From: a virus
Length of the DNA: 45,220 nt
Virus record (IMG/VR): IMGVR_UViG_3300010354_000006
Direction: 5' to 3' (one strand)
Shown: piece after piece, positions 9,311 to 45,220 of the stretch
Numbering within the stretch: the first letter of the stretch is position 1
How the letters are laid out: each line of letters opens with the position of its first letter
Position numbers and translations under genes: made by a program
Notes under the pieces: generated by a model
What the model was told of the DNA's origin: nothing
What the model saw: only the letters and a program-made list of their open reading frames with translations
The model's database searches: none

Positions 9311-9616
9311 TTACCTTTCTCTCTGTCTTTCTTCTTTTAAAAACTCTTTAAAATTATCCTTAAGCTCATTTAAAGCAGCAATAACCATGCGAAAATTCTC
9401 TTCAATTTTAATTGTTGATTTTTCTAAGCCTTTAATATCTTTGCCCTGTTCATCAGTCCTAACTTCTAAAGCTAAAATCTTTTTATCTAAAACTTTTAAT
9501 TGTGGCTCTATGACTAAGTTGTAAAAAATAATAAGTACAGTTAATTCACCACCAATGATTGAACCAACAAGCATTAACAATTCATAGGATTTAAAGATGT
9601 ACTCTGTTTCCGTCAT
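9311..9616 (-). CDS. Membrane-anchored coiled-coil protein (101 aa)
   Basis: N-terminal hydrophobic helix then charged helical region. Confidence 0.45.
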   Translation of the reverse strand: MTETEYIFKSYELLMLVGSIIGGELTVLIIFYNLVIEPQLKVLDKKILALEVRTDEQGKDIKGLEKSTIKIEENFRMVIAALNELKDNFKEFLKEERQRER

Positions 9617-10449
9617 TTTAATACTACAGTAACACCGATTTGCTCTTCTGCTTTACCCGATAAGAAAACTTTTAATAAACCGCCTTCAACTTTAACTAAA
9701 TAATTTAAATTCTCAGGATTAACAGGTAATGAAGCACCATTCGTGTTAGACTTTATTCTGTTTTCGCCTAAAAGATTTTGTATTAAGACTCTCAGCTCAG
9801 CATCAAAAAAAGTACCTTGAGACCCCATAGCTGTAATTTGAATTAAAGCTTTGTAGTTAGACTGCTTTAATTCAAATGCTGCTACTTGGGTAAGCTCGCT
9901 GCTAATTAAAATTGTTTCTTTTGTCGGATATTCAGCACCATCTTTACCCTTTTCGCCTTGCTCGCCCTTCTCCCCTTTCTCGCCCTTTAAATCCCCTAAA
10001 TTATTTTTCCATTCTTCAAATAAAGAAGCTAATTCTTTTTTCGCAAAATCATAATCAAATTCTGCATTTAAGCCATCTTTACCATTAATGCCATCTTTAC
10101 CATCTTTACCATTAATGCCATCTTTACCATTTTTGCCATTAACACCATTCTTGCCATCAAGACCATTCAAGCCATCTTTGCCATCAAGTCCGTTTAAACC
10201 ATCCTTGCCATCAAGTCCGTTTAAACCATCTTTGCCATCAGCTCCATTTAAGCCAGCTTCCCCTTGCTCGCCCTTGTCGCCTTTTTGACCCTTGAGCTTA
10301 TCTACTTTTTTCGCTAAAAGCTTTTCAACTTCTTGATTGAAAACGTCTAAAACCCTTTCTTTTAAAGGCTCTTTAAATTCTTCGCTAAATAGTTCACCTA
10401 TTTGAACTAGTCTGTTTTCTATTTTTGCTGCACCCGCTCCGCCTAACAT
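9613..10449 (-). CDS. Collagen-like repeat protein (Gly-X-Y), probable tail fibre
   Basis: Long run of G-X-Y triplets (GKDGLNGLDGKDGLNGLDGK...) encoded by tandem DNA repeats at about 10080-10260. Confidence 0.65.
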   Translation of the reverse strand: MLGGAGAAKIENRLVQIGELFSEEFKEPLKERVLDVFNQEVEKLLAKKVDKLKGQKGDKGEQGEAGLNGADGKDGLNGLDGKDGLNGLDGKDGLNGLDGKNGVNGKNGKDGINGKDGKDGINGKDGLNAEFDYDFAKKELASLFEEWKNNLGDLKGEKGEKGEQGEKGKDGAEYPTKETILISSELTQVAAFELKQSNYKALIQITAMGSQGTFFDAELRVLIQNLLGENRIKSNTNGASLPVNPENLNYLVKVEGGLLKVFLSGKAEEQIGVTVVLK

Positions 10450-19800: not shown

Positions 19801-22468
19801 GTAGTTTTTTTAATTTCTCTGGGTAAGTTTTATTTTTAAATTTATTTAATTGCTCTTGTATTTTATTTCGTTGTTCCTCTGCTTTTTTTAAAGATGGGTT
19901 ATCTAAAATAGGTTTTAATGATTCTTTTTGCTGTAAAAGAGATTCAAGGTTTGCTTTTTCTTCTTTTAGCCCCGATTCAAGTTTTCCAATCTTTTCTTTT
20001 GCAAAAGATTTAATATTCGCTATCTTTTTTTGAGTTGCTTCTTTTACTTGATATTTATATTTACCAAGTGCAATGTTCGCCGTTTTAATACTTGGGATTG
20101 CATTTAGCTCTTCTTGCGTTAAAGACTCCCCTGATTTACTACGCTTATCTCGTCTTTTTTGTTTTAAAGCATTAACTTTATCTTCTTGTGCTTTTAATTG
20201 TTGCTCTGCTTTAGTTTTTACTACTTCAATTTGACGATTAGCCGTTTCGTTTATTTCTTTTAATTTTTGTGCATAAAGTTTTTTAGAAGCATCTAGTCTT
20301 TTTTTTGTTGCAGTTATTATTTTCTCTGTTTCATCAAATTTCTCTAACGCCCCTTCTTGCAGGAAATCACGTTTAATTTTATTGTAAGCAATATCAGCTT
20401 CCTCAGAAGCCTCTTCTAATTTTTGCAATTCAAGCTTTAAGGCATCAATTTTTTTTGTTATAAAAACTTTAATATTTTCAACCTTAGTTTTAACTTCGGA
20501 ACTTAAATCTTTTTGAAATTTGTTAAATGAAATTTTATAAGTAGGATCAAGTTTATTTAATTGCTGTTCTGCTAATTCTGTTTGCTTTGCCTTTAAACTT
20601 TTTTCAAAATCAGCTTGAGATGCCGTTAGTTTACTAGCGACCTGCTCTTCAGTTTGCTTAACTGCTTGAGAATATTGACCTTCTAGTTTTTGATTGTTTC
20701 TTTCTAAGCTTTGTAATCTATTTTCAAAATATTGCTTAACTCGTTTTGCTTTTTTTTCTTTACTTACCGAGTCTGGTAAGTTATTAATTTCATCAAGCGA
20801 TTTAGAATACTCTGCTTTAGTTTGTTCAATTTCACGTGCGTAAGATTCTTGCTTCTGTTTAAATTTAATATCAAGTTCTGCAATTTTTGTTTGCCTAGAT
20901 TCTTCTAGCTGAGTTTTTAAACTTTCGTATTTAGTATTTGTTTCTTTTTGAAAAAGATTAAATTCTTCTTCGTAATTTCTTTGTGGTGCCGTTGCTGTTT
21001 CTTGGGAAACAGTTTCGGGAGTTTCAGTGATTTCTACAGGCTCCGTCTCAGCTTGTTTTTTAGCACGTTGATAAGAGTCATTAACTTGCTTCTGTTGTTT
21101 AGCTAAATTCTTTTCTTCTAAATCAAATGGCTTAGTTAATGTACGCTCTTGCTTGTCTATATCAGCTTTCTGTTTAAGCAGGTTTTTTGTTTTCTGTTCA
21201 CTTTCTCTTTGGATTTCAGATACTAATTTATCTTGCTCTGTGTCTATCTGCTTGAAAGCTGTTTGCTTTTCAGCTTCGTACATCTCATTTAAAGTAGATA
21301 CATTCTGCCTAGTCTCTTCTTTAAGCCCTAAACGTGTTTGCTCTTCTGCTAATTGCCCTTGCCTTTGTTCTGTCAAAGACCTAGCTTGCATTAAATCAGA
21401 TTCAATCTTTTCGTATTTTAATGCTGCTGCTGCTTTTGCTTCTTCTGCTGCCCTTGCTTCGTTAGCACCTTTAGCCTTGTATGCTTCTACATTACGTCTA
21501 TTAAATGCTCTTTTTGTTTCAGCTATACCCTTTAAAGATTCTTTACTATTGCCCCTAAAGATAAAGCCTTCTTGCCCTTGAGCCATTCTGCCCGCTTCTC
21601 TTAAAGCTTGCTTGCCGTAATTTTTGGTTAGTGCTGCTCCAATACCTTCTATCGCTCCACCAAACGTAGTATCTATAGCTAAATTTAGAGCTAAGTCTTT
21701 AAGGTTAATGTTCCCCTCTTCGTCCATTGAAGCCGAGAGAGACAATGGAGAACCTGCTATTGTGTTAGCTGCTGCACCTGCTATAAATCTTTTAGTTCCT
21801 GCTTGTGCTATAACTTTTTTAGTTGCTTCTCGTGCTGCTGTGCCTGCAATCCCTTTAGCTGTTAAATCTTTAAATATGTTTGCCGCTAAAGCACCTTCGC
21901 TAGCTGCTCCAAAAGCTTTAGCATAAATTGACCCACCTCCGAGTAACCCAACTACTGTACCAAGTCCAGTAGGTAAATCTTGGAATCCTTGCCCTTCTTG
22001 TATCCCTGTAACATCACTTGCTAAATCTTGTATGAATTGACCAGTTTGAGCTAGACCTTGAGATACAGGGTCTAACTCTCTCTTAACCCTCTCCCTGCCT
22101 GCAAAAGTATCCATCATTAATTCTGCTGGAGATGGAATAGCTTTAGATGCTCCGTATAAAGCTTTAGGAGCTTCTAACATTAAAGCTGGAATCTCTGCTG
22201 CTGATTTAAGCCCTGCTGCTATTGTCTTGCCAGCTATAGGAATGCTTTGTATTGCATCTGCTATGGCTTTTTTTGCATAAGCTCCTGAATTGATACGGTC
22301 AGGGGTTAATTTGCTTGCTGCAAATTGTAATTCATCTGGAGTTAATTCACGTCCAATATCGTCTTGATAACGAGTTAAAGCTGCCTCTGTGTATTTAACA
22401 GCCTGATCTTTTAAAAGTGGATTTATACTTTTAGCTTTTAAATCTTCAATAAAATTTTCAATTCCCAT
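16853..22468 (-). CDS. Very large virion protein (1871 aa) with long central coiled coil; internal/ejection protein or tape-measure-like
   Basis: Uninterrupted 5.6-kb ORF; central Lys/Glu/Gln-rich heptad region. Confidence 0.55.
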   Translation of the reverse strand: MGIENFIEDLKAKSINPLLKDQAVKYTEAALTRYQDDIGRELTPDELQFAASKLTPDRINSGAYAKKAIADAIQSIPIAGKTIAAGLKSAAEIPALMLEAPKALYGASKAIPSPAELMMDTFAGRERVKRELDPVSQGLAQTGQFIQDLASDVTGIQEGQGFQDLPTGLGTVVGLLGGGSIYAKAFGAASEGALAANIFKDLTAKGIAGTAAREATKKVIAQAGTKRFIAGAAANTIAGSPLSLSASMDEEGNINLKDLALNLAIDTTFGGAIEGIGAALTKNYGKQALREAGRMAQGQEGFIFRGNSKESLKGIAETKRAFNRRNVEAYKAKGANEARAAEEAKAAAALKYEKIESDLMQARSLTEQRQGQLAEEQTRLGLKEETRQNVSTLNEMYEAEKQTAFKQIDTEQDKLVSEIQRESEQKTKNLLKQKADIDKQERTLTKPFDLEEKNLAKQQKQVNDSYQRAKKQAETEPVEITETPETVSQETATAPQRNYEEEFNLFQKETNTKYESLKTQLEESRQTKIAELDIKFKQKQESYAREIEQTKAEYSKSLDEINNLPDSVSKEKKAKRVKQYFENRLQSLERNNQKLEGQYSQAVKQTEEQVASKLTASQADFEKSLKAKQTELAEQQLNKLDPTYKISFNKFQKDLSSEVKTKVENIKVFITKKIDALKLELQKLEEASEEADIAYNKIKRDFLQEGALEKFDETEKIITATKKRLDASKKLYAQKLKEINETANRQIEVVKTKAEQQLKAQEDKVNALKQKRRDKRSKSGESLTQEELNAIPSIKTANIALGKYKYQVKEATQKKIANIKSFAKEKIGKLESGLKEEKANLESLLQQKESLKPILDNPSLKKAEEQRNKIQEQLNKFKNKTYPEKLKKLQETVAKQIETVKTKQQQALEAKQAEINQLKADVETKRLQDIELQKQQLKEQRLKALDDEYNAARSDVDTRLSVTNANRNQAVSDFQAKKQALLEQQQKLEQEVKDKIDYLNRRREALKKQKEVALNRQFKKDALREYREKMGIETPVLRNADDIEIDRMIAKEELDQIDSQLAKLKAERNPIIETEEKTISRAELEKEALNDMYKAMYRHPALIAKMKSEVGKAEVENTGAFISDASVEMPTATKKPKNKIIQTAENAGNLWNTLVQPIISALRDINPSLAGQLRKFEFASSKIANKHLSQAMPLFSKLGKLLSKNEKKIFNSYLIKGDHDAIMAFLSKIDKEGRQFKELPPIFKVPLKFLEAEDTARDFEKLINKPLTELYETGVRPVLDDLYAQQTEAGLEVGFIENYFPTSVKKDSVETWRSLFDLDKITDDLKADPATRTEYDTALAKERKKLGRELEELERIEFTNKFLRGYGGVGSTPTLSNRKPRSGLAQQMEGIIFKDAKGNERFLSDLYEDPATVLENYINRSTFDIESRKFFGRADGADLTTSVGAFTDSLRQNNEISSEQVVKVKDLLTARFVNGPKKPANFARLAKDGALLTALNDIQSTITQATELGTSAYRNGILNTIKGLGQSFDPETVKTLDLGIARIGADYADNPSVVRKVVDFALKINGFRAANKLMQETQLNAGFNYFKNVFTKEKGAKFDKEYSYLKSMFGVDEADRMVQAFRTKDLKEAYDDDSIGLALFERLSGTQVLSLSDMPAGYLQAPDLRFFYALKSFSLKMLQFTKDEVYSGMANGIKSIATKGLNKQNTKQLGESLRNAIALSVLVGGSNYGINYFKDIIKGKTSEEYQSLEERAVEAAFQTFIPIVNPYMFYKLDKQGLAAGFGSFIMPAAPWLDALDADVKEYRKAVDTGEEYNPFLSRILVNNIPIAGKTLYAWSPAGRKQYENAIEAKQKDRAAKEKKLREKQLAELRGY

Positions 22469-37466: not shown

Positions 37467-38195
37467 TATACCACGATATATAAAAATATACCACTGTTAA
37501 TTTAAATATATCTCAGCGGGACTTTATCCTTCTAGCTCTCACTAGCCTGCATTGAAAACTCTAGTCTTTCGGTTTAATCACATAGATTTTTATGTGGTTA
37601 GTTATTGCTTGTTTAAATCGGTTTAAATCAATTTCTTTTTATTCTTGGGATGATTATGGCTTTAATAAGGTTTTCTTTTAACCTGTGGCAGAATAAAGGG
37701 GTTTTGTGAAGTTTTCTAGTTGGTTGTTAGGTTGGTTTATTACATTGCTGAAATTTGAAATTTTTTATGTGTAGCGAGAGGGGATGCAGTGATAATTTAA
37801 AGGGGTGGCATGGGGTAAAGGATGTTACCCGTAAATACTTTTCTGCTTTTATTACTCTAGAATTACCCTTATACAGTGCCATATTCAAGATAACATTATA
37901 TTATCTTAAGTAAGAACGTGATTGTAGAGCCATTTCAGTATGTTGTTAAAGATAATATACAGAAATTAAGGGGTAGCTACCGAGTATTGGGGGGTATCTT
38001 ATAGTGATTAATGATTGATGACTGATGATCTCTCTCTTATATATTCTTTATCGCTTGCATGTGTTACCCTGCTCGACACATTAACATCATTTCTCATTCT
38101 AAACAAAAACGAGAAACGAATAAAACTCATTCTCAGAAAGCAACTATTCAATTTTACCTACCTACTAGTAGGTAAAAGTTATACCTAACAATTAA

Positions 38196-38288
38196 GCCTA
38201 AAGTGGACTATAGGGTTTAATTAATATAAAGTCTAAAGTGGACTATAGGGTTACAGTAGTAATAAAGCCTATAGTGGACTATAGGGTT
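38196..38288. repeat. Three direct copies of a 22-bp motif GYCTAWAGTGGACTATAGGGTT (38196-38217, 38231-38252, 38267-38288)
   Basis: Read directly; 35-36 bp periodicity; adjacent 12-bp palindrome CCTACTAGTAGG at 38161-38172. Confidence 0.85.
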
Positions 38289-38516
38289 ATAAAGGCTTTC
38301 TAATCAACATTCCTTACTTATCGGCGTAACGATTAAAAACAAGCGAGGCTAGTATTAGTATCTTTTTGTTGTTTTACTTATGACATAAGACAATAGAACA
38401 TTAAATATATTTAATATATCACACCATAACTATATAATCCCTTGAAACCTAGTCCAGTAGTGCATTTCAAGGATTTATAAGTTATTTGATTGATAAAAAA
38501 ATATTTAATAAAAGTG

Positions 38517-38544
38517 TTGCTTTCTTATGACATTATGGTATAAT
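38517..38544 (+). promoter_or_regulatory. Sigma70-like early promoter: -35 TTGCTT (38517-38522), 16-bp spacer, extended -10 TGGTATAAT (38536-38544)
   Basis: Hexamers read directly; ATG at 38551 is 6 nt after -10, implying a leaderless transcript. Confidence 0.5.
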
Positions 38545-38550
38545 AGAAGT

Positions 38551-38739
38551 ATGGAAAGAAAACAAATTGTTAGTCAAGAGTTTAGTCTAAGATTCATAGG
38601 CTTTAAAAACATAGTAGAAGCTAACTTAGCTATGTTTACTCAGTATCCAGATACTGATACTGGATACAATTTGTTGCACTCGTGCAACAAAAAAAACAAT
38701 ATAGAGCCATGTGAAGATGGCTTTATTTTTTATTGTTAA
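38551..38739 (+). CDS. Small early protein (62 aa), possibly leaderless
   Basis: In-frame ATG inside track ORF 38527..38739, positioned at predicted transcription start. Confidence 0.35.
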   Translation: MERKQIVSQEFSLRFIGFKNIVEANLAMFTQYPDTDTGYNLLHSCNKKNNIEPCEDGFIFYC

Positions 38740-38748
38740 TTAGACCAA

Positions 38749-38778
38749 GACCTAAGCAAGTCTTTAAACTGCTTAAGG
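38749..38778 (+). promoter_or_regulatory. Intercistronic element A copy 1 (imperfect palindrome overlapping RBS)
   Basis: GACCTAAGCAAGTCTTTAAACTGCTTAAGG; TAAGCA / TGCTTA inverted repeat. Confidence 0.6.
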
Positions 38779-38786
38779 AAAAAGAA

Positions 38787-38942
38787 ATGAAAAACAATCA
38801 ACTAATAGAAAAATACAATATCACAGCTAAGGATATAGCAGTAATCGAGGATCATCTTCATTATGGTTATGGTTACGAGTATTTAGAAGCTAGGTTCAGT
38901 TTCTCTGAGTTAGAGGTAATTCTAGACACTTGGAGCATTTAA
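38787..38942 (+). CDS. Small early protein (51 aa)
   Basis: ATG at 38787 after AAGGAAAAAG RBS; track ORF began at TTG 38733. Confidence 0.35.
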   Translation: MKNNQLIEKYNITAKDIAVIEDHLHYGYGYEYLEARFSFSELEVILDTWSI

Positions 38943-38952
38943 TTATTAGGAT

Positions 38953-38982
38953 GACCTGAGCAAGTCTTTAAACTGCTTAAGG
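38953..38982 (+). promoter_or_regulatory. Intercistronic element A copy 2
   Basis: GACCTGAGCAAGTCTTTAAACTGCTTAAGG. Confidence 0.6.
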
Positions 38983-38991
38983 AGTAAAGAA

Positions 38992-39225
38992 ATGAAAAAA
39001 TTTGACCACTTAAAAAACATTAAAAGCCTGCTAAACCAGCAGTTGAAAAAGCATGGGTTAAAACTACCTGTGCATGCTGAGCTGAAAGACATGGCTATTT
39101 TGTCTGATATCTTAGCAGGTAGGATTACAGAAATAGACTTAGCTTTTGCGATAGCAAAGATAGAGTCAAGAGCTGATAAGGCTTGTATAGCAGCTAGCAA
39201 AGTAACAGAAAGGGAGAGTAAGTAA
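38992..39225 (+). CDS. Hypothetical early protein (77 aa)
   Basis: ORF track. Confidence 0.4.
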   Translation: MKKFDHLKNIKSLLNQQLKKHGLKLPVHAELKDMAILSDILAGRITEIDLAFAIAKIESRADKACIAASKVTERESK

Positions 39226-39477
39226 ATGACGATATATTACGCAATAAGCCGAGACATTAAAGAAGCTCAAACAGGGCTTAATAGAATAAGTCACTTAGAT
39301 GATTATTCAGGAACTCCAGAAGAGAAATTAAACGATTTAATCGATGACCACTTAAACTACGTGAATGTATGGAGTGGCAGTTTAGATTTTGCTTACAGCA
39401 GTACAAGTAAGTTTCCTGAATCGGAAAGGTATATTTTAATAACTGAGACTGACACTGGCTTAAAAAGAATTCAATAA
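39226..39477 (+). CDS. Hypothetical early protein (83 aa)
   Basis: ORF track; ATG follows upstream stop. Confidence 0.4.
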   Translation: MTIYYAISRDIKEAQTGLNRISHLDDYSGTPEEKLNDLIDDHLNYVNVWSGSLDFAYSSTSKFPESERYILITETDTGLKRIQ

Positions 39478-39483
39478 ACCAAA

Positions 39484-39512
39484 GACCTAGCAAGTCTTAA
39501 AACTGCTTCAGG
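39484..39512 (+). promoter_or_regulatory. Intercistronic element A copy 3
   Basis: GACCTAGCAAGTCTTAAAACTGCTTCAGG. Confidence 0.55.
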
Positions 39513-39522
39513 AGATAAAAAA

Positions 39523-39936
39523 ATGACAATTAAAATACAAATCGATAAAAAAATATTAGAAGCTGATAGCTTGGCGGTATTAGCTTATAGTGTCGAGAAG
39601 GAAATTAACAAAATACTAGAAATTAAAGAAAGTAGTTACCTTGCAACTCTCTCAATTAAAAGCATGTTACAGGGCTTGCAAGTCTATTCTAATTATCATA
39701 AAAATCTTTCAGCTGATGATTATGAACATTATTGTAGCAATGGTACTTTTAAATTAAACCTACACGAGGAATTAGATGACCCAAAATTAGATTTTCCTCT
39801 GGTGGTCTCACGTTCCATAGATTTATGGCTACAAGGTACTAATGAACCTAAGTTAATAGTCTCTTTCAGAAATGACAATAACCAGCTAGTCATAGATGAT
39901 GAGAACTTGAATAAACTAGATTCATACTTTGCTTAA
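39523..39936 (+). CDS. Hypothetical early protein (137 aa)
   Basis: ORF track. Confidence 0.45.
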   Translation: MTIKIQIDKKILEADSLAVLAYSVEKEINKILEIKESSYLATLSIKSMLQGLQVYSNYHKNLSADDYEHYCSNGTFKLNLHEELDDPKLDFPLVVSRSIDLWLQGTNEPKLIVSFRNDNNQLVIDDENLNKLDSYFA

Positions 39937-40003
39937 AACTATCAGCTAACCGATTCTACACCATCTCAACGGCATGGTGTAGAACTGGTAAGCACCAGTT
40001 AAA
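39937..40003 (+). ncRNA. Intercistronic element B copy 1: conserved leader, 11-bp stem hairpin (39954-39964 / 39974-39984), second short hairpin, then RBS
   Basis: TTCTACACCAT / ATGGTGTAGAA perfect stem; ACTGGT-AAGC-ACCAGT second hairpin. Confidence 0.55.
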
Positions 40004-40023
40004 GAAAAAAGGAAAATAAAAAA

Positions 40024-40707: not shown

Positions 40708-40776
40708 AACTATCATCAAGCTAACCGCTTCTAGCATATCTAATAGCATATGCTGGAACTGGTTATCACCAGATAA
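40708..40776 (+). ncRNA. Intercistronic element B copy 2: same architecture, stem 40729-40739 / 40748-40758 with compensatory changes
   Basis: TTCTAGCATAT / ATATGCTGGAA (one G-U wobble); CTGGT-TATC-ACCAG. Confidence 0.55.
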
Positions 40777-40791
40777 AGGAAAAAGGAAAAA

Positions 40792-41536: not shown

Positions 41537-41605
41537 AACTATCATCAAGCTAACCGATTCTAGCACTTACTAATCCAAGTGCTGGAACTGGTTATCACCA
41601 GATAT
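41537..41605 (+). ncRNA. Intercistronic element B copy 3: stem 41558-41568 / 41577-41587 with compensatory changes
   Basis: TTCTAGCACTT / AAGTGCTGGAA (one G-U wobble); CTGGT-TATC-ACCAG. Confidence 0.55.
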
Positions 41606-41618
41606 AGGAAAAAAACAA

Positions 41619-41756
41619 ATGACAATATTCAAAACACAACACGATTTAATGAATGATGAGTATTACTTAGAGATACTGGGAATTAGAGTATCCAATGCGA
41701 TAGCTAATTTCTTGGTTAGATTAGGAGTTATTCAAGAGAACGAAAATATTTAGAGC
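41619..41756 (+). CDS. Small hypothetical protein (45 aa), below the ORF-track cutoff
   Basis: ATG directly after element B copy 3. Confidence 0.25.
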
Positions 41757-42293: not shown

Positions 42294-42577
42294 TTTTCCG
42301 TCTTTTCCGTCATATCTTTTTACTTTCCGTCAAAATGACGAAAGCTATAATACAAGCCTAGTCCGCCTATCCAGTCTTTTCCGTCTTTTCCGTCATTTCC
42401 GTAATGAATAAGTGAAGTTATAAATAATAATATATATATACATATTGATTAATTATTTCATTTATTTATTTTTCTAGACGAAAATGACGAAATGACGGAA
42501 AAACTCTCGATAAGTATACCTAGTCTATATTATAGAGTCCGTCAAACTATGACGGAAAACACTCAAATGACGGAAAA
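42294..42577. promoter_or_regulatory. Putative origin of replication: TTTTCCGTC iterons (42294-42302, 42303-42311, 42323-42331, 42377-42385, 42386-42394), AT-rich core (42411-42476), inverted GACGGAAAA iterons (42494-42502, 42551-42559, 42569-42577)
   Basis: Read directly; lies in an 800-bp ORF-free region upstream of the helicase gene. Confidence 0.6.
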
Positions 42578-42857: not shown

Positions 42858-44600
42858 ATGAAAAATGAACAAGCTTTATTGGGTGCTATTCTTCAGCACG
42901 CAGAATGTAAGTATTTAATCTATGAATTAAAAGCTGATTATTTTTCAAATGACGATAATCGCAAAGTCTTTTTAGCTATGCTGGCATTGCATAATGCTAA
43001 TGAACCTATAGAAATATTCACAGTTAAAAGCAAGGTAGAAGAACTAAATTATTCTGATCTGCTTGGATACATTGAACTATTAAGAGACGTAGCAGATATT
43101 CCATCTAATGTTAGATTCACTCTTAAAAGAATTTTCAAGGCATATAAAGCTAAAGAAGAAAAAAGAATTAAAAGCGAAATAAAATTTCACCAAGATGATT
43201 TACCCAAAGTTCAATCCTTAATTCAAGAGTTTAATGAGCTTAACAAATTAATCGCATTAGACGAAATTAAATTACTCGGTAAAAACAAGGAATCCCAAGC
43301 TCAATTTTGTTTGCAGGATATACTGCCATCACCATTATATGCCTATCTATATGGCATTTCCTCAGTTCCATACAAAGACTTCCCAGTAGAAGCAGCATTC
43401 AGTTTATTTCTTTCCATAGTGGGCAGTCTAGCGGGTACTAAATTCACTATTTCACACCGAAGACACAAAGAACATGCTTTTTGGTGGTCTATGGTGGGTT
43501 TACCCGTAGGATCAGGCAAAACACCTATCTTAAATAACCTAATGAAGCCCTTAACAGTCTTGCAGTACGAAGCTTTAGAAGTTTATAAACAGCAGCTTAA
43601 AGAATTTCAAGAAGTTAAAAAGAAAAAGAAAAAAGATACTTCTCTTGAGGAATTTCAAGAGGAATTACCAGAACCTAAAAGAAAAAGATTTTATTTATCT
43701 GATTCAACAATGGAGACTACATTGAAAGCTCACTCAGATAACCCTAATGGGCTTTTATGGGTCAAGGATGAGCTTAAAGGTCTCTTTAATTCTCTTGGTG
43801 CTTATAAGGGTGGACGGGGAGAAGATAAAGAAACATTACTGTCACTAGGTGCAGGTACTTTTATTTCAGTAGCTAGAAAAGAAACAGATATTGAACTCGT
43901 CAAATCGGCTATTAGCCTCACTGGTGGGATTCAACCTCAAGTATTAAAAGATTTATATTCCAAAGATGGAGATAAAGATAACGGCTTATGGCAGAGATTC
44001 GCCTATATTATCCACGAAACAGTATCAAGAGAAAAAAACCCAGACGATGTAGTCTTAAATGATTCGATATTAACTAAGCTCTATTCCCATATTATTAGCT
44101 CAGAGGGTGCTAGCTTAGTCTTTGCTGATTATGATTATGTCGAATGGGTATCAGATTATTTTAATGAAGAGATAGATAAAGCTCCAACACCAGCAATGCA
44201 AGCATATTACACTAAATGCTTTGGGTTTTTCTTAAGGCTTTCTATTTTGTTGCATATTCTTGATTCGCACTTCTCTTATCTGTCTTACGATAGACCAGTT
44301 AGCAGAACTACCAGCGAAAATGCTTTTTCCTTAATTGTGGCTTACATTTCCCATGCTGAAAAACTATTTTATGTTAAAACCATCAAAAGCAAAGATCAAC
44401 AATTTATCAATAAAATTCTTGATAAGCCTTTAGCTAAAAGAACAATTAATGAAATCGCTAAAACTATTACTCAACGTGTTGATAAACCTTCTGATTATGC
44501 CCGCTATCTATTTGAGCTTATGCAAGAAGCAGGCTTAGGTACTATCAACAAAACCAACGGCAAAAACTGGCAATTCGCTTTAAAGGGAGAAACAATATGA
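42858..44600 (+). CDS. Replicative helicase / replication initiator with DnaB-like N-terminal domain and Walker A P-loop
   Basis: N-terminus NEQALLGAILQHAE...FSNDDNRKVFLAML...EPIEIFTV matches DnaB N-terminal pattern; P-loop VGLPVGSGKTPIL. Confidence 0.55.
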   Translation: MKNEQALLGAILQHAECKYLIYELKADYFSNDDNRKVFLAMLALHNANEPIEIFTVKSKVEELNYSDLLGYIELLRDVADIPSNVRFTLKRIFKAYKAKEEKRIKSEIKFHQDDLPKVQSLIQEFNELNKLIALDEIKLLGKNKESQAQFCLQDILPSPLYAYLYGISSVPYKDFPVEAAFSLFLSIVGSLAGTKFTISHRRHKEHAFWWSMVGLPVGSGKTPILNNLMKPLTVLQYEALEVYKQQLKEFQEVKKKKKKDTSLEEFQEELPEPKRKRFYLSDSTMETTLKAHSDNPNGLLWVKDELKGLFNSLGAYKGGRGEDKETLLSLGAGTFISVARKETDIELVKSAISLTGGIQPQVLKDLYSKDGDKDNGLWQRFAYIIHETVSREKNPDDVVLNDSILTKLYSHIISSEGASLVFADYDYVEWVSDYFNEEIDKAPTPAMQAYYTKCFGFFLRLSILLHILDSHFSYLSYDRPVSRTTSENAFSLIVAYISHAEKLFYVKTIKSKDQQFINKILDKPLAKRTINEIAKTITQRVDKPSDYARYLFELMQEAGLGTINKTNGKNWQFALKGETI

Positions 44601-45081: not shown

Positions 45082-45186
45082 ATGAACGAACTAGAAGAAT
45101 TAAAAACAGTGCAATTAATTATTAATTTTGTCGTAGTAATAGCTATCCTAGCTGTAGCCGTAACAGTTGGGAGGTACTTGGGATGA
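45082..45186 (+). CDS. Small membrane peptide (34 aa, single predicted TM helix); stop overlaps ATG of the 65-aa ORF (equivalent to 86..283)
   Basis: AAGGAAAAG RBS; hydrophobic core IINFVVVIAILAVAVTV. Confidence 0.3.
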   Translation: MNELEELKTVQLIINFVVVIAILAVAVTVGRYLG

Positions 45187-45220
45187 GAGAATTAGACCGC
45201 CAAAAATGGCTTCCAGTGGA
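45098..45220. repeat. Second copy of the 123-bp terminal direct repeat
   Basis: Exact match to 1-123. Confidence 0.9.

Follow-up and report, generated by a model that had tools for sequence, protein, structure and literature searches.

The 45,220-nucleotide (nt) IMG/VR record IMGVR_UViG_3300010354_000006, analyzed here as one strand and called the window, carries a short sequence, element A, repeated in front of three small early genes, and the question that it raises is what such a repeat does there. An earlier note on this DNA had read it either as a dyad operator in the DNA or as an RNA hairpin sequestering part of the Shine-Dalgarno (SD) sequence, and had concluded that one factor coordinates the three genes. 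We found that the conserved fold of element A is an H-type RNA pseudoknot of about 27 nt on the sense strand, that its position tracks the stop codon of the gene before it and not the ribosome-binding site (RBS) of the next one, and that it is carried by hundreds of unrelated tailed phages of many bacterial phyla. The observation is thereby confirmed and its interpretation partly supported, and the finding is larger than the one first described: a pan-phage family of pseudoknots that follow stop codons and resemble coremin, an element of plant and fungal RNA viruses.

Direct reading of the sequence bore out the three copies, and element A proved to be a real repeated cis-element. Its core, GCAAGTCTT-N-AAACTGCTT, matched at 38756, 38960, and 39490, compared with 0 matches in 100 dinucleotide shuffles. 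The full 30-mer matched exactly in copies 1 and 2, while copy 3 had a deletion of 1 nt after GACCT. With a covariance model of the wider family, exactly these three sites were found in the window, scoring 46.4, 42.9, and 31.2 bits (the last with one gap), and the next best site scored 10 bits.

The fold emerged from covariation. Variant copies inside single loci gave the first hint of compensatory changes, and IMG/VR was scanned with one helix arm left free and the partner arm unspecified. The first stem (S1) has 4 base pairs (bp), N0-G-A-C with G-U-C-N15, where G1 is the first base of GAC; the second (S2) has 5 bp, N6-N9-A10 with U22-N26, as in AAGCA with UGCUU in copy 1. The loops are C-U (L1), a single A (L2), and U-W-A-A-A-C (L3). 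The S1 scan (positions 12-13 free, 1-3 unspecified) returned GAC/GT 82 times, GTC/GA 6 times, GCC/GG 3 times, and GAG/CT twice, with one mismatch. Among the matches listed, the S2 scan (6-10 free, 22-26 unspecified) gave more than 25 complementary five-base combinations, including GGACA/UGUCC, GGUGA/UCACC, and UGUUA/UAACA, together with about 8 obvious chance matches without complementarity. The fourth S1 pair (position 0 with 15) was kept in 13 of the 17 cases in which position 15 was not U.

Pairing statistics were computed on 73 distinct cores, chance matches included. The pseudoknot model left 89.3% of the cells paired, compared with 25 to 46% for slid controls, and the cores held 78 double-sided changes versus 20.4 in shuffles, a count reached by 0 of 500 shuffles. 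The closing pair of S1, C3-G12, was C-G in 69 of the 73, U·G in 2, and G-C in 2. A structural regular expression matched 250 times in the fetched loci and 6 times in shuffles. U22 was present in 98% of a set selected by pattern; the first scan had AAAC fixed by its search pattern, and the variant copies found with mismatches tolerated mostly retained TAAAC. There was no support for a fifth S1 pair (position -1 with 16; 46.5% paired versus 48.2% expected), and an alternative inner hairpin (G12-U13 with A20-C21) was rejected, since position 13 covaries with position 2, not 20.

The same pairs decide between the strands. The 73 cores contain 34 G·U or U·G cells, which would be A·C on the opposite strand, so the structure is fixed to the sense strand, as RNA or, formally, as sense-strand single-stranded DNA. 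This supports the RNA half of the original interpretation. It contradicts the dyad operator, as do the two interleaved covarying helices and the variant copies within single loci, which carry different yet complementary stems; moreover, no promoter-like site adjoins the copies. Any function at the DNA level, be it an operator, a phage promoter, or a recombination boundary for small genes of the PeSL kind, is barely credible to us and already largely refuted. Near-identical 26-mers do flank unrelated small genes in unrelated phages, where they could promote exchange, and a BPROM promoter call covers the site in one GenBank record. However, the motif is always co-oriented with the flanking genes, sigma-70-like hexamers at usable spacing are absent, and recombination, possibly a side effect, cannot account for the covariation.

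The long hairpin proposed for the RNA has to be divided. The inverted repeat CCTAAGCA/TGCTTAAGG on which it was based is present in the window, and its inner five pairs (AAGCA with UGCUU) are conserved as S2. The outer pairs, joining C3, C4, and U5 to the AGG of the SD sequence, did not hold up: they can form in just 12, 5, and 32 of the 73 members, respectively, and they clash with S1, in which C3 covaries with G12. It is therefore quite improbable that element A is a translational operator that hides the SD sequence in a hairpin for one repressor. In all three window copies an AGG lies 1 to 2 nt past the 3′ arm of S2, able to pair with C3, C4, and U5, and the extended hairpin is the predicted minimum free energy fold for copies 1 and 3, though not for copy 2; since this hairpin and S1 would compete, the element could conceivably switch between two states. 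Against this, the plain hairpin is no more stable than shuffled sequence (z = -1.45, -0.91, and -0.57 for copies 1 to 3), the SD sequence can be paired only in the window and lies 9 to 15 nt further downstream in other SD-using phages, and no candidate repressor is common to the unrelated carriers.

The three copies lie on the plus strand, and their helices, taken from the family covariation, can be placed to the nucleotide. In copy 1 (38748..38774), S1 joins 38748-51 to 38760-63 and S2 joins AAGCA at 38754-58 to UGCUU at 38770-74; L1 (CU) is at 38752-53, L2 (A) at 38759, and L3 (UUAAAC) at 38764-69. Copy 1 starts 9 nt past the stop codon (38737-39) of ORF0, the small first early open reading frame (ORF) (38553..38739, plus strand; alternative start at 38527), and is followed by the SD sequence AAGGA (38775-79) and the ATG at 38787 of ORF1 (38787..38942, plus strand), which encodes 51 amino acids (aa) of no known family. 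Copy 2 (38952..38978), whose S2 pairs GAGCA with UGCUU through a G6·U26 wobble, has its G1 10 nt past the ORF1 stop codon (38940-42), its SD sequence AAGGAG at 38979-84, and the next ATG at 38992. There ORF2 (77 aa) and ORF3 (83 aa) are directly adjacent (38992..39477, plus strand), the stop TAA of one being followed at once by the ATG of the other, with no pseudoknot between them. Copy 3 (39483..39507) comes after ORF3, with G1 6 nt past its stop codon (39475-77); its S2 has only 4 bp, AGCA with UGCU. It precedes the SD sequence CAGGAG (39509-14) and the ATG at 39523 of ORF4 (39523..39936, plus strand; 137 aa). A search of Pfam and PHROG families gave none for any of the eight small early proteins.

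Thus an SD sequence stands directly 3′ of every copy, as had been seen, with an ATG 12 to 15 nt past the last paired base, while the position of all three copies 6 to 10 nt past the stop codon of the preceding ORF had been missed. The window copies are at minimum spacing on both sides, from stop and from SD, so that compaction of the genome to its limit, with the 3′ arm abutting the SD sequence, is the best reading of why they overlap the RBS.

Across the family, the motif is anchored to the upstream stop codon and not to the RBS downstream. We measured how far G1 lies from the stop codon of the same-strand ORF upstream in 197 unique contexts and found 5 nt in 3 of them, 6 nt in 28, 7 nt in 48, 8 nt in 17, 9 nt in 11, and 10 nt in 8. 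The distribution begins abruptly, peaks at 7 nt, and leaves only a thin tail beyond 10 nt, whereas a random-position control was flat. The distance to the downstream start ranged from 13 to about 650 nt, which argues against RBS overlap as a conserved property. The upstream stop codons were TAA in 113 cases, TAG in 22, and TGA in 13, and both flanks of the motif were G-poor and unstructured.

With a stop codon in the A site of the ribosome, the first paired base would fall near +13 counted from the P site, right at the entry channel for the mRNA. A spacer of 6 to 8 nt from the A site is also the optimum for frameshift-stimulating pseudoknots (PMC10321173). The element might accordingly be directed at the terminating ribosome at its entry channel, blocking read-through or scanning by post-termination 70S ribosomes, uncoupling cistrons, or shielding a downstream RNA fold or RBS. 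We consider this rather unlikely. The spacing and the unstructured flanks favor it, and so does the stalling of scanning ribosomes by coremin-type pseudoknots, of which the Watson-Crick type needs no second hairpin. However, recoding through read-through or frameshifting is out, as the -1 and +1 frames stay open for a median of 4 and 8 codons, copies occur within tRNA arrays and in tandem without an upstream ORF, and a sharp lower bound with a tail of longer distances would also be expected from compaction alone.

The spread of the motif also bears on the proposal that one factor coordinates the three early genes. A scan of IMG/VR for the 19-nt core gave 111 loci, nearly all of which also had the unspecified 5′ extension GACCT(A/G)A, while their 3′ flanks differed fully and consisted of AT-rich leaders, SD sequences, or tRNA genes. 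Apart from a twin contig, IMGVR_UViG_3300010370_000070, none of these loci has a protein in common with the window phage. BLAST searches with 35-mers extended the family to cultured phages of Staphylococcus (86 records), Bacillus, Anoxybacillus, Lactobacillus, Clostridium, Arthrobacter, Moraxella, Microcystis, Cylindrospermopsis, Planktothrix, Acaryochloris, Roseobacter, and Lentibacter, as well as to crAss-like phages. Named carriers include Staphylococcus aureus Phietavirus, Anoxybacillus A403, Lactobacillus KC5a, Bacillus Page, Arthrobacter Amigo, Microcystis Ma-LMM01, Cylindrospermopsis CrV, Roseobacter SIO1 and CRP-6, Moraxella Mcat, and crAss cr7_1. The same motif thus comes after unrelated genes in hundreds of unrelated phages with no proteins in common with this one, which makes single-factor control an unnecessary assumption. 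The earlier note had taken absence of the motif from related genomes as grounds for rejecting its proposal; the outcome was the opposite, the spread of the motif far exceeding that of the genes.

The motif is almost confined to phages. A search of 185,579 species genomes for the AAGCA/UGCUU variant alone gave 7 matches, all intergenic between small co-directional ORFs, in candidate phyla radiation (CPR) bacteria, a Woesearchaeota metagenome-assembled genome, Alistipes, Ruminococcus, Capnocytophaga, and Cellulosilyticum. No close copy was found in 5,426 complete Escherichia coli genomes with a query for one S2 variant (near-identical to GAGCA/UGCUC). Rfam 15 gave no related match to the window copies at E ≤ 10, riboswitch models included, and only tRNAs at the gathering score on 13 pseudoknot-rich loci. 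Full-text literature searches with motif substrings returned only unrelated primers and siRNAs, and no description was found in searches on a phage pseudoknot after a stop codon or on coremin together with bacteriophages. The family is apparently undescribed in Rfam and the searched literature.

This distribution has a bearing on whether the element is an aptamer, either for a small ligand in the manner of the preQ1-I riboswitch or for a conserved host protein, serving as a sensor or a tag carried by phage mRNAs. Riboswitches typically combine invariant loops with covarying stems, as this motif does, and both topology and the A-rich L3 recall preQ1-I. We nevertheless regard it as very improbable, given the lack of an Rfam riboswitch match, a single-A L2 that leaves no C for ligand pairing, a distance to any expression platform that is not fixed, the near-confinement to phages, and neighboring genes that are functionally unrelated and have no link to queuosine genes.

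The genes around the motif are diverse. The flanking proteins (77 non-redundant upstream, 96 downstream) are mostly small, with a median near 95 aa, and a co-directional gene starts within 150 nt in 58% of the 163 contexts with enough flanking sequence. One recurrent site lies between the portal or minor-head genes and the scaffold and major capsid genes, as in S. aureus B166 and phage 37, Anoxybacillus A403, Lactobacillus KC5a, and Bacillus Page; scaffold families make up 9 of the 89 non-redundant downstream proteins scanned. In SIO1 and CRP-6 the pseudoknot follows ribonucleotide reductase. Elsewhere it follows each gene in runs of small genes, as in the window, the IMGVR contig L126, and the Cylindrospermopsis phage CrV. 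In CrV (L229; Cylindrospermopsis virus RM-2018a, MH636380.1), the small hypothetical genes gp077-079 each have one behind them (21590-22292); the block is duplicated in an inverted repeat and mirrored at 43635-44337, and a CRISPR array is annotated in the phage record. Finally, tRNA genes begin 1 to 12 nt downstream of the pseudoknot in Arthrobacter Amigo and at least 9 metagenomic contexts, and the minus strand of L189 (7467-7595) carries three tandem pseudoknots about 50 nt apart with no ORFs between them.

A U-tract directly follows the pseudoknot in 44 of 176 contexts (25%), compared with 9.1 expected. On the minus strand of L126 (8025-10417), six consecutive small genes are each followed by a pseudoknot with a GUC/GAC stem and about eight U. 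These U-tracts recommend an intrinsic terminator or attenuator with a pseudoknot in place of the hairpin, an idea that we find highly improbable all the same: the window copies run into AAGGAG or CAGGAG without a U-tract and are not called by the terminator scan, 75% of the family lacks the tract, and termination before scaffold and capsid genes or tRNAs would be counterproductive. Furthermore, the tracts are found most often within co-directional operons, immediately ahead of the next gene (31 of 95), and not at operon ends (3 of 19).

The tRNA neighbors and U-tracts also fit a 3′-end cap for the upstream cistron, which would block PNPase, RNase R, and RNase II without terminating transcription, the 3′ end itself being made a few nt downstream by an endonuclease, RNase P, or termination. 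This is the best account of the tie to the stop codon and of the tRNA genes, found in at least 10 independent contexts, where RNase P would leave the pseudoknot as the 3′ end of the mRNA; the tandem pseudoknots of L189, free of ORFs, suit it as well. We still judge it unlikely overall. Coremin, the closest known relative, is a barrier to attack in the 5′-to-3′ direction, and a cap would be redundant where an ordinary terminator hairpin directly follows the pseudoknot (L113, L138, L164, and L200).

The window genome itself has several features apart from element A. An exact 123-bp terminal direct repeat (bases 1-123 equal 45098-45220; G+C content, about 36%) marks the circular assembly of a complete genome of about 45.1 kb, and the near-identical twin contig has 42,747 bp. 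Structural genes are on the minus strand and the early/replication arm is on the plus strand from about 38.5 kb. No match to a 1.6-kb region was found by blastn in INPHARED, a search for related loci that started from the helicase yielded the twin contig alone, and the terminase is <30% identical to that of any cultured phage. The early arm opens with an extended -10 promoter, TGnTATAAT (TGGTATAAT, 38537-45), and an ATG at 38553 about 8 nt later, which suggests that ORF0 is a near-leaderless ORF of 62 aa. A terminator scan placed an intrinsic-terminator-like hairpin with a T-run inside the 3′ end of ORF0 (38701..38735, plus strand), 14 nt upstream of copy 1; being strong and inside ORF0, it would make the downstream early genes dependent on read-through.

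Further along the arm, a second intercistronic element of about 85 nt, element B, is repeated at 39937-40023, 40708-40790, and 41537-41620. It begins right at the stop codon (TAR-AACTATCA..GCTAACCGNTTCTA) and consists of two hairpins followed by an A-rich SD region. Hairpin 1 covaries between the copies (CACCAT/ATGGTG, GCATAT/ATATGC, and GCACTT/AAGTGC), and hairpin 2 is CTGGT-NNNN-ACCAG. In IMG/VR it was found only in the twin contig and in L230 and L231, both of which have an element A pseudoknot upstream of element B. The divergent intergenic region between the structural and early arms contains three tandem 35-nt repeats (38191-38296; ATWAAGYCTAWAGTGGACTATAGGGTT...), each with a palindrome-like CTATAGTCCACTATAG; they are possible operators or iterons. 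A 9-nt unit, TTTTCCGTC, is clustered at 42294-42408, about 450 nt upstream of a DnaB-N/DUF3987 helicase-primase gene (42858-44600), and these iteron-like clusters may mark the replication origin. On the minus strand at 9613-10449, in the tail/fiber region, 9-nt-periodic repeats encode the collagen-like Gly-X-Y tract of a 278-aa protein.

Among known elements, the closest to the pseudoknot is coremin, an exoribonuclease-resistant RNA (xrRNA) also called xrRNA-C, with its Watson-Crick variants (xrRNA-WCC), from plant and fungal RNA viruses: GUCCGAAGACGUUAAACUAC. The first hairpin of coremin (hp1) has 3 to 4 bp with a pyrimidine-purine closing pair, and its spacer, (G)UUAAACU(AC), has AAA, C, and U essential by mutagenesis and one natural U-to-A change (PMC6546385). 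In the phages, S1 has 4 pairs and a pyrimidine-purine closing pair, C3-G12, and U16-W17-A18-A19-A20-C21-U22 reproduces the spacer with the essential positions invariant, W17 falling on the position that tolerates U to A. The likeness can be seen by setting S. aureus phage copies, GUCGUUAAACU, beside coremin, GACGUUAAACU. Both also pair the loop with sequence 3′ of the hairpin to give a small H-type pseudoknot like that of beet western yellows virus (BWYV), into which the Watson-Crick variants of coremin fold, and both are intergenic or lie shortly past a stop codon and may occur in tandem.

The loops are less alike. That of coremin is YGAD or YGNNAD, with longer loops tolerated, and the phage loop, C-U-N-N-N-N-A-A, fits at its first Y (C4) and its last A-D (A10-A11) but has U instead of G in second position. 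It has 8 nt, of which 5 form the full Watson-Crick S2, compared with 0 to 3 such pairs in coremin. Coremin and its Watson-Crick variants stall both the exoribonuclease Xrn1 and scanning ribosomes and cause 22 to 30% -1 frameshifting; the screen that found the variants was a frameshifting screen in E. coli, and the Watson-Crick type retains its effect on ribosomes without the second hairpin (hp2) (PMC10321173). For the stalling of Xrn1, coremin requires hp2 directly after the spacer. The carriers differ too: here they are double-stranded DNA phages of bacteria, in which the relevant nuclease would be RNase J or RNase E, not Xrn1.

From this near position-for-position match to coremin we infer a mechanical roadblock that needs no protein. 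The account that we favor, while giving it somewhat less than an even chance, is that the pseudoknot is a protein-independent roadblock or insulator in polycistronic mRNA, a barrier to 5′-to-3′ movement being one version of it. Almost all unpaired nucleotides are invariant across phyla and the carriers have no protein in common, so the element probably acts through its own compact fold, likely a triplex. Lying just outside the footprint of a ribosome that terminates at the upstream stop codon, the pseudoknot would stay folded while the upstream gene is translated. It could then stop a 5′-to-3′ exoribonuclease of the RNase J type, scanning by RNase E, and possibly ribosomes arriving from the upstream cistron, and the segments of an operon would meet separate fates, with the downstream cistron protected. 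In the window, three such insulators would separate the first early cistrons. The scaffold/capsid junctions, the tRNA-proximal copies, and the runs of small genes are contexts that fit segmental RNA fates.

A narrower claim, which we offer as tentative at best, is that these pseudoknots would constitute the first natural xrRNA class of bacteriophages, a minimal Watson-Crick relative of coremin without hp2 that halts RNase J-type 5′-to-3′ decay (and ribosomes) at cistron boundaries and carves out stable sub-operonic RNAs. A flaviviral xrRNA blocks bacterial RNase J1 in vitro, its authors remarking that xrRNAs never naturally meet RNase J1 (PMC5760640).

Several observations weigh against the roadblock. 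A hairpin resembling hp2 (≥4 bp, 0 to 4 nt past the pseudoknot) occurred in 31 of 176 contexts, compared with 31.4 expected, and the downstream 30 nt folded at -1.6 kcal/mol versus -1.2 in shuffles. Protection in the 5′-to-3′ direction explains neither the placement right before tRNAs, which RNase P would free, nor the tracking of the upstream stop codon instead of the downstream gene, and the tight spacing from the stop may reflect only compaction and the ribosome footprint. The U-tract in a quarter of the family hints at an additional or different role. Moraxella phages are among the carriers, and an RNase J barrier would there presuppose the enzyme in the host.

If truly undescribed, the family would be among the most widespread cis-acting RNAs of phages, and its small size suits it to immediate structural and biochemical work. 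Genetic tests are feasible where it precedes scaffold/capsid genes or tRNAs in phages of S. aureus, Lactobacillus, Bacillus, and cyanobacteria. A roadblock would mean that programmed resistance to nucleases and ribosomes, so far known only from eukaryotic RNA viruses, shapes the operons of bacterial viruses, and the xrRNA claim, if true, that viruses of bacteria and of eukaryotes have adopted one tiny fold. Such a roadblock would also supply synthetic biology with a 27-nt insulator for polycistronic constructs. In annotation, the motif marks true gene ends in phage "dark matter."

Other known systems resemble the family in part. The -1 frameshifting pseudoknots of luteoviruses (BWYV and potato leafroll virus) are likewise compact H-type folds of 26 to 28 nt, in which L1 is short and an A-rich ...AAAC loop faces S1, and lie 6 to 8 nt past the A-site codon (PMC10321173). 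The phage motif differs in that it follows a stop codon, has neither a slippery heptamer nor an overlapping -1 ORF, and occurs also without an upstream ORF. The preQ1-I aptamer has the same size, H-type topology, and A-rich L3, and its 3′ arm can touch the SD sequence; the phage motif, matching no Rfam model, has one A as L2 with no ligand-pairing C and is tied to an upstream stop codon. The RNase III sites of T7 and the 5′ stabilizer of Bacillus phage SP82 are structures repeated between early cistrons that give segments separate stabilities. They are long hairpins cut by a host-specific enzyme and conserved among close relatives only, whereas the phage motif, a pseudoknot of 27 nt, keeps its sequence across phyla and falls below the length that RNase III needs. 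Further candidates considered, namely a CRISPR repeat or RNA anti-CRISPR, a type III antitoxin (ToxI) mimic, hepatitis delta virus-like or pistol ribozymes, and phage RNA polymerase or N4-type hairpin promoters, were dropped because only 27 nt are conserved, both helices covary, the copies are dispersed after stop codons, and no polymerase is shared. In view of its 8-nt loop with a 5-bp S2, its U in place of G, and its lack of hp2, the phage pseudoknot is not filed as a member of coremin and is best described as coremin-like.

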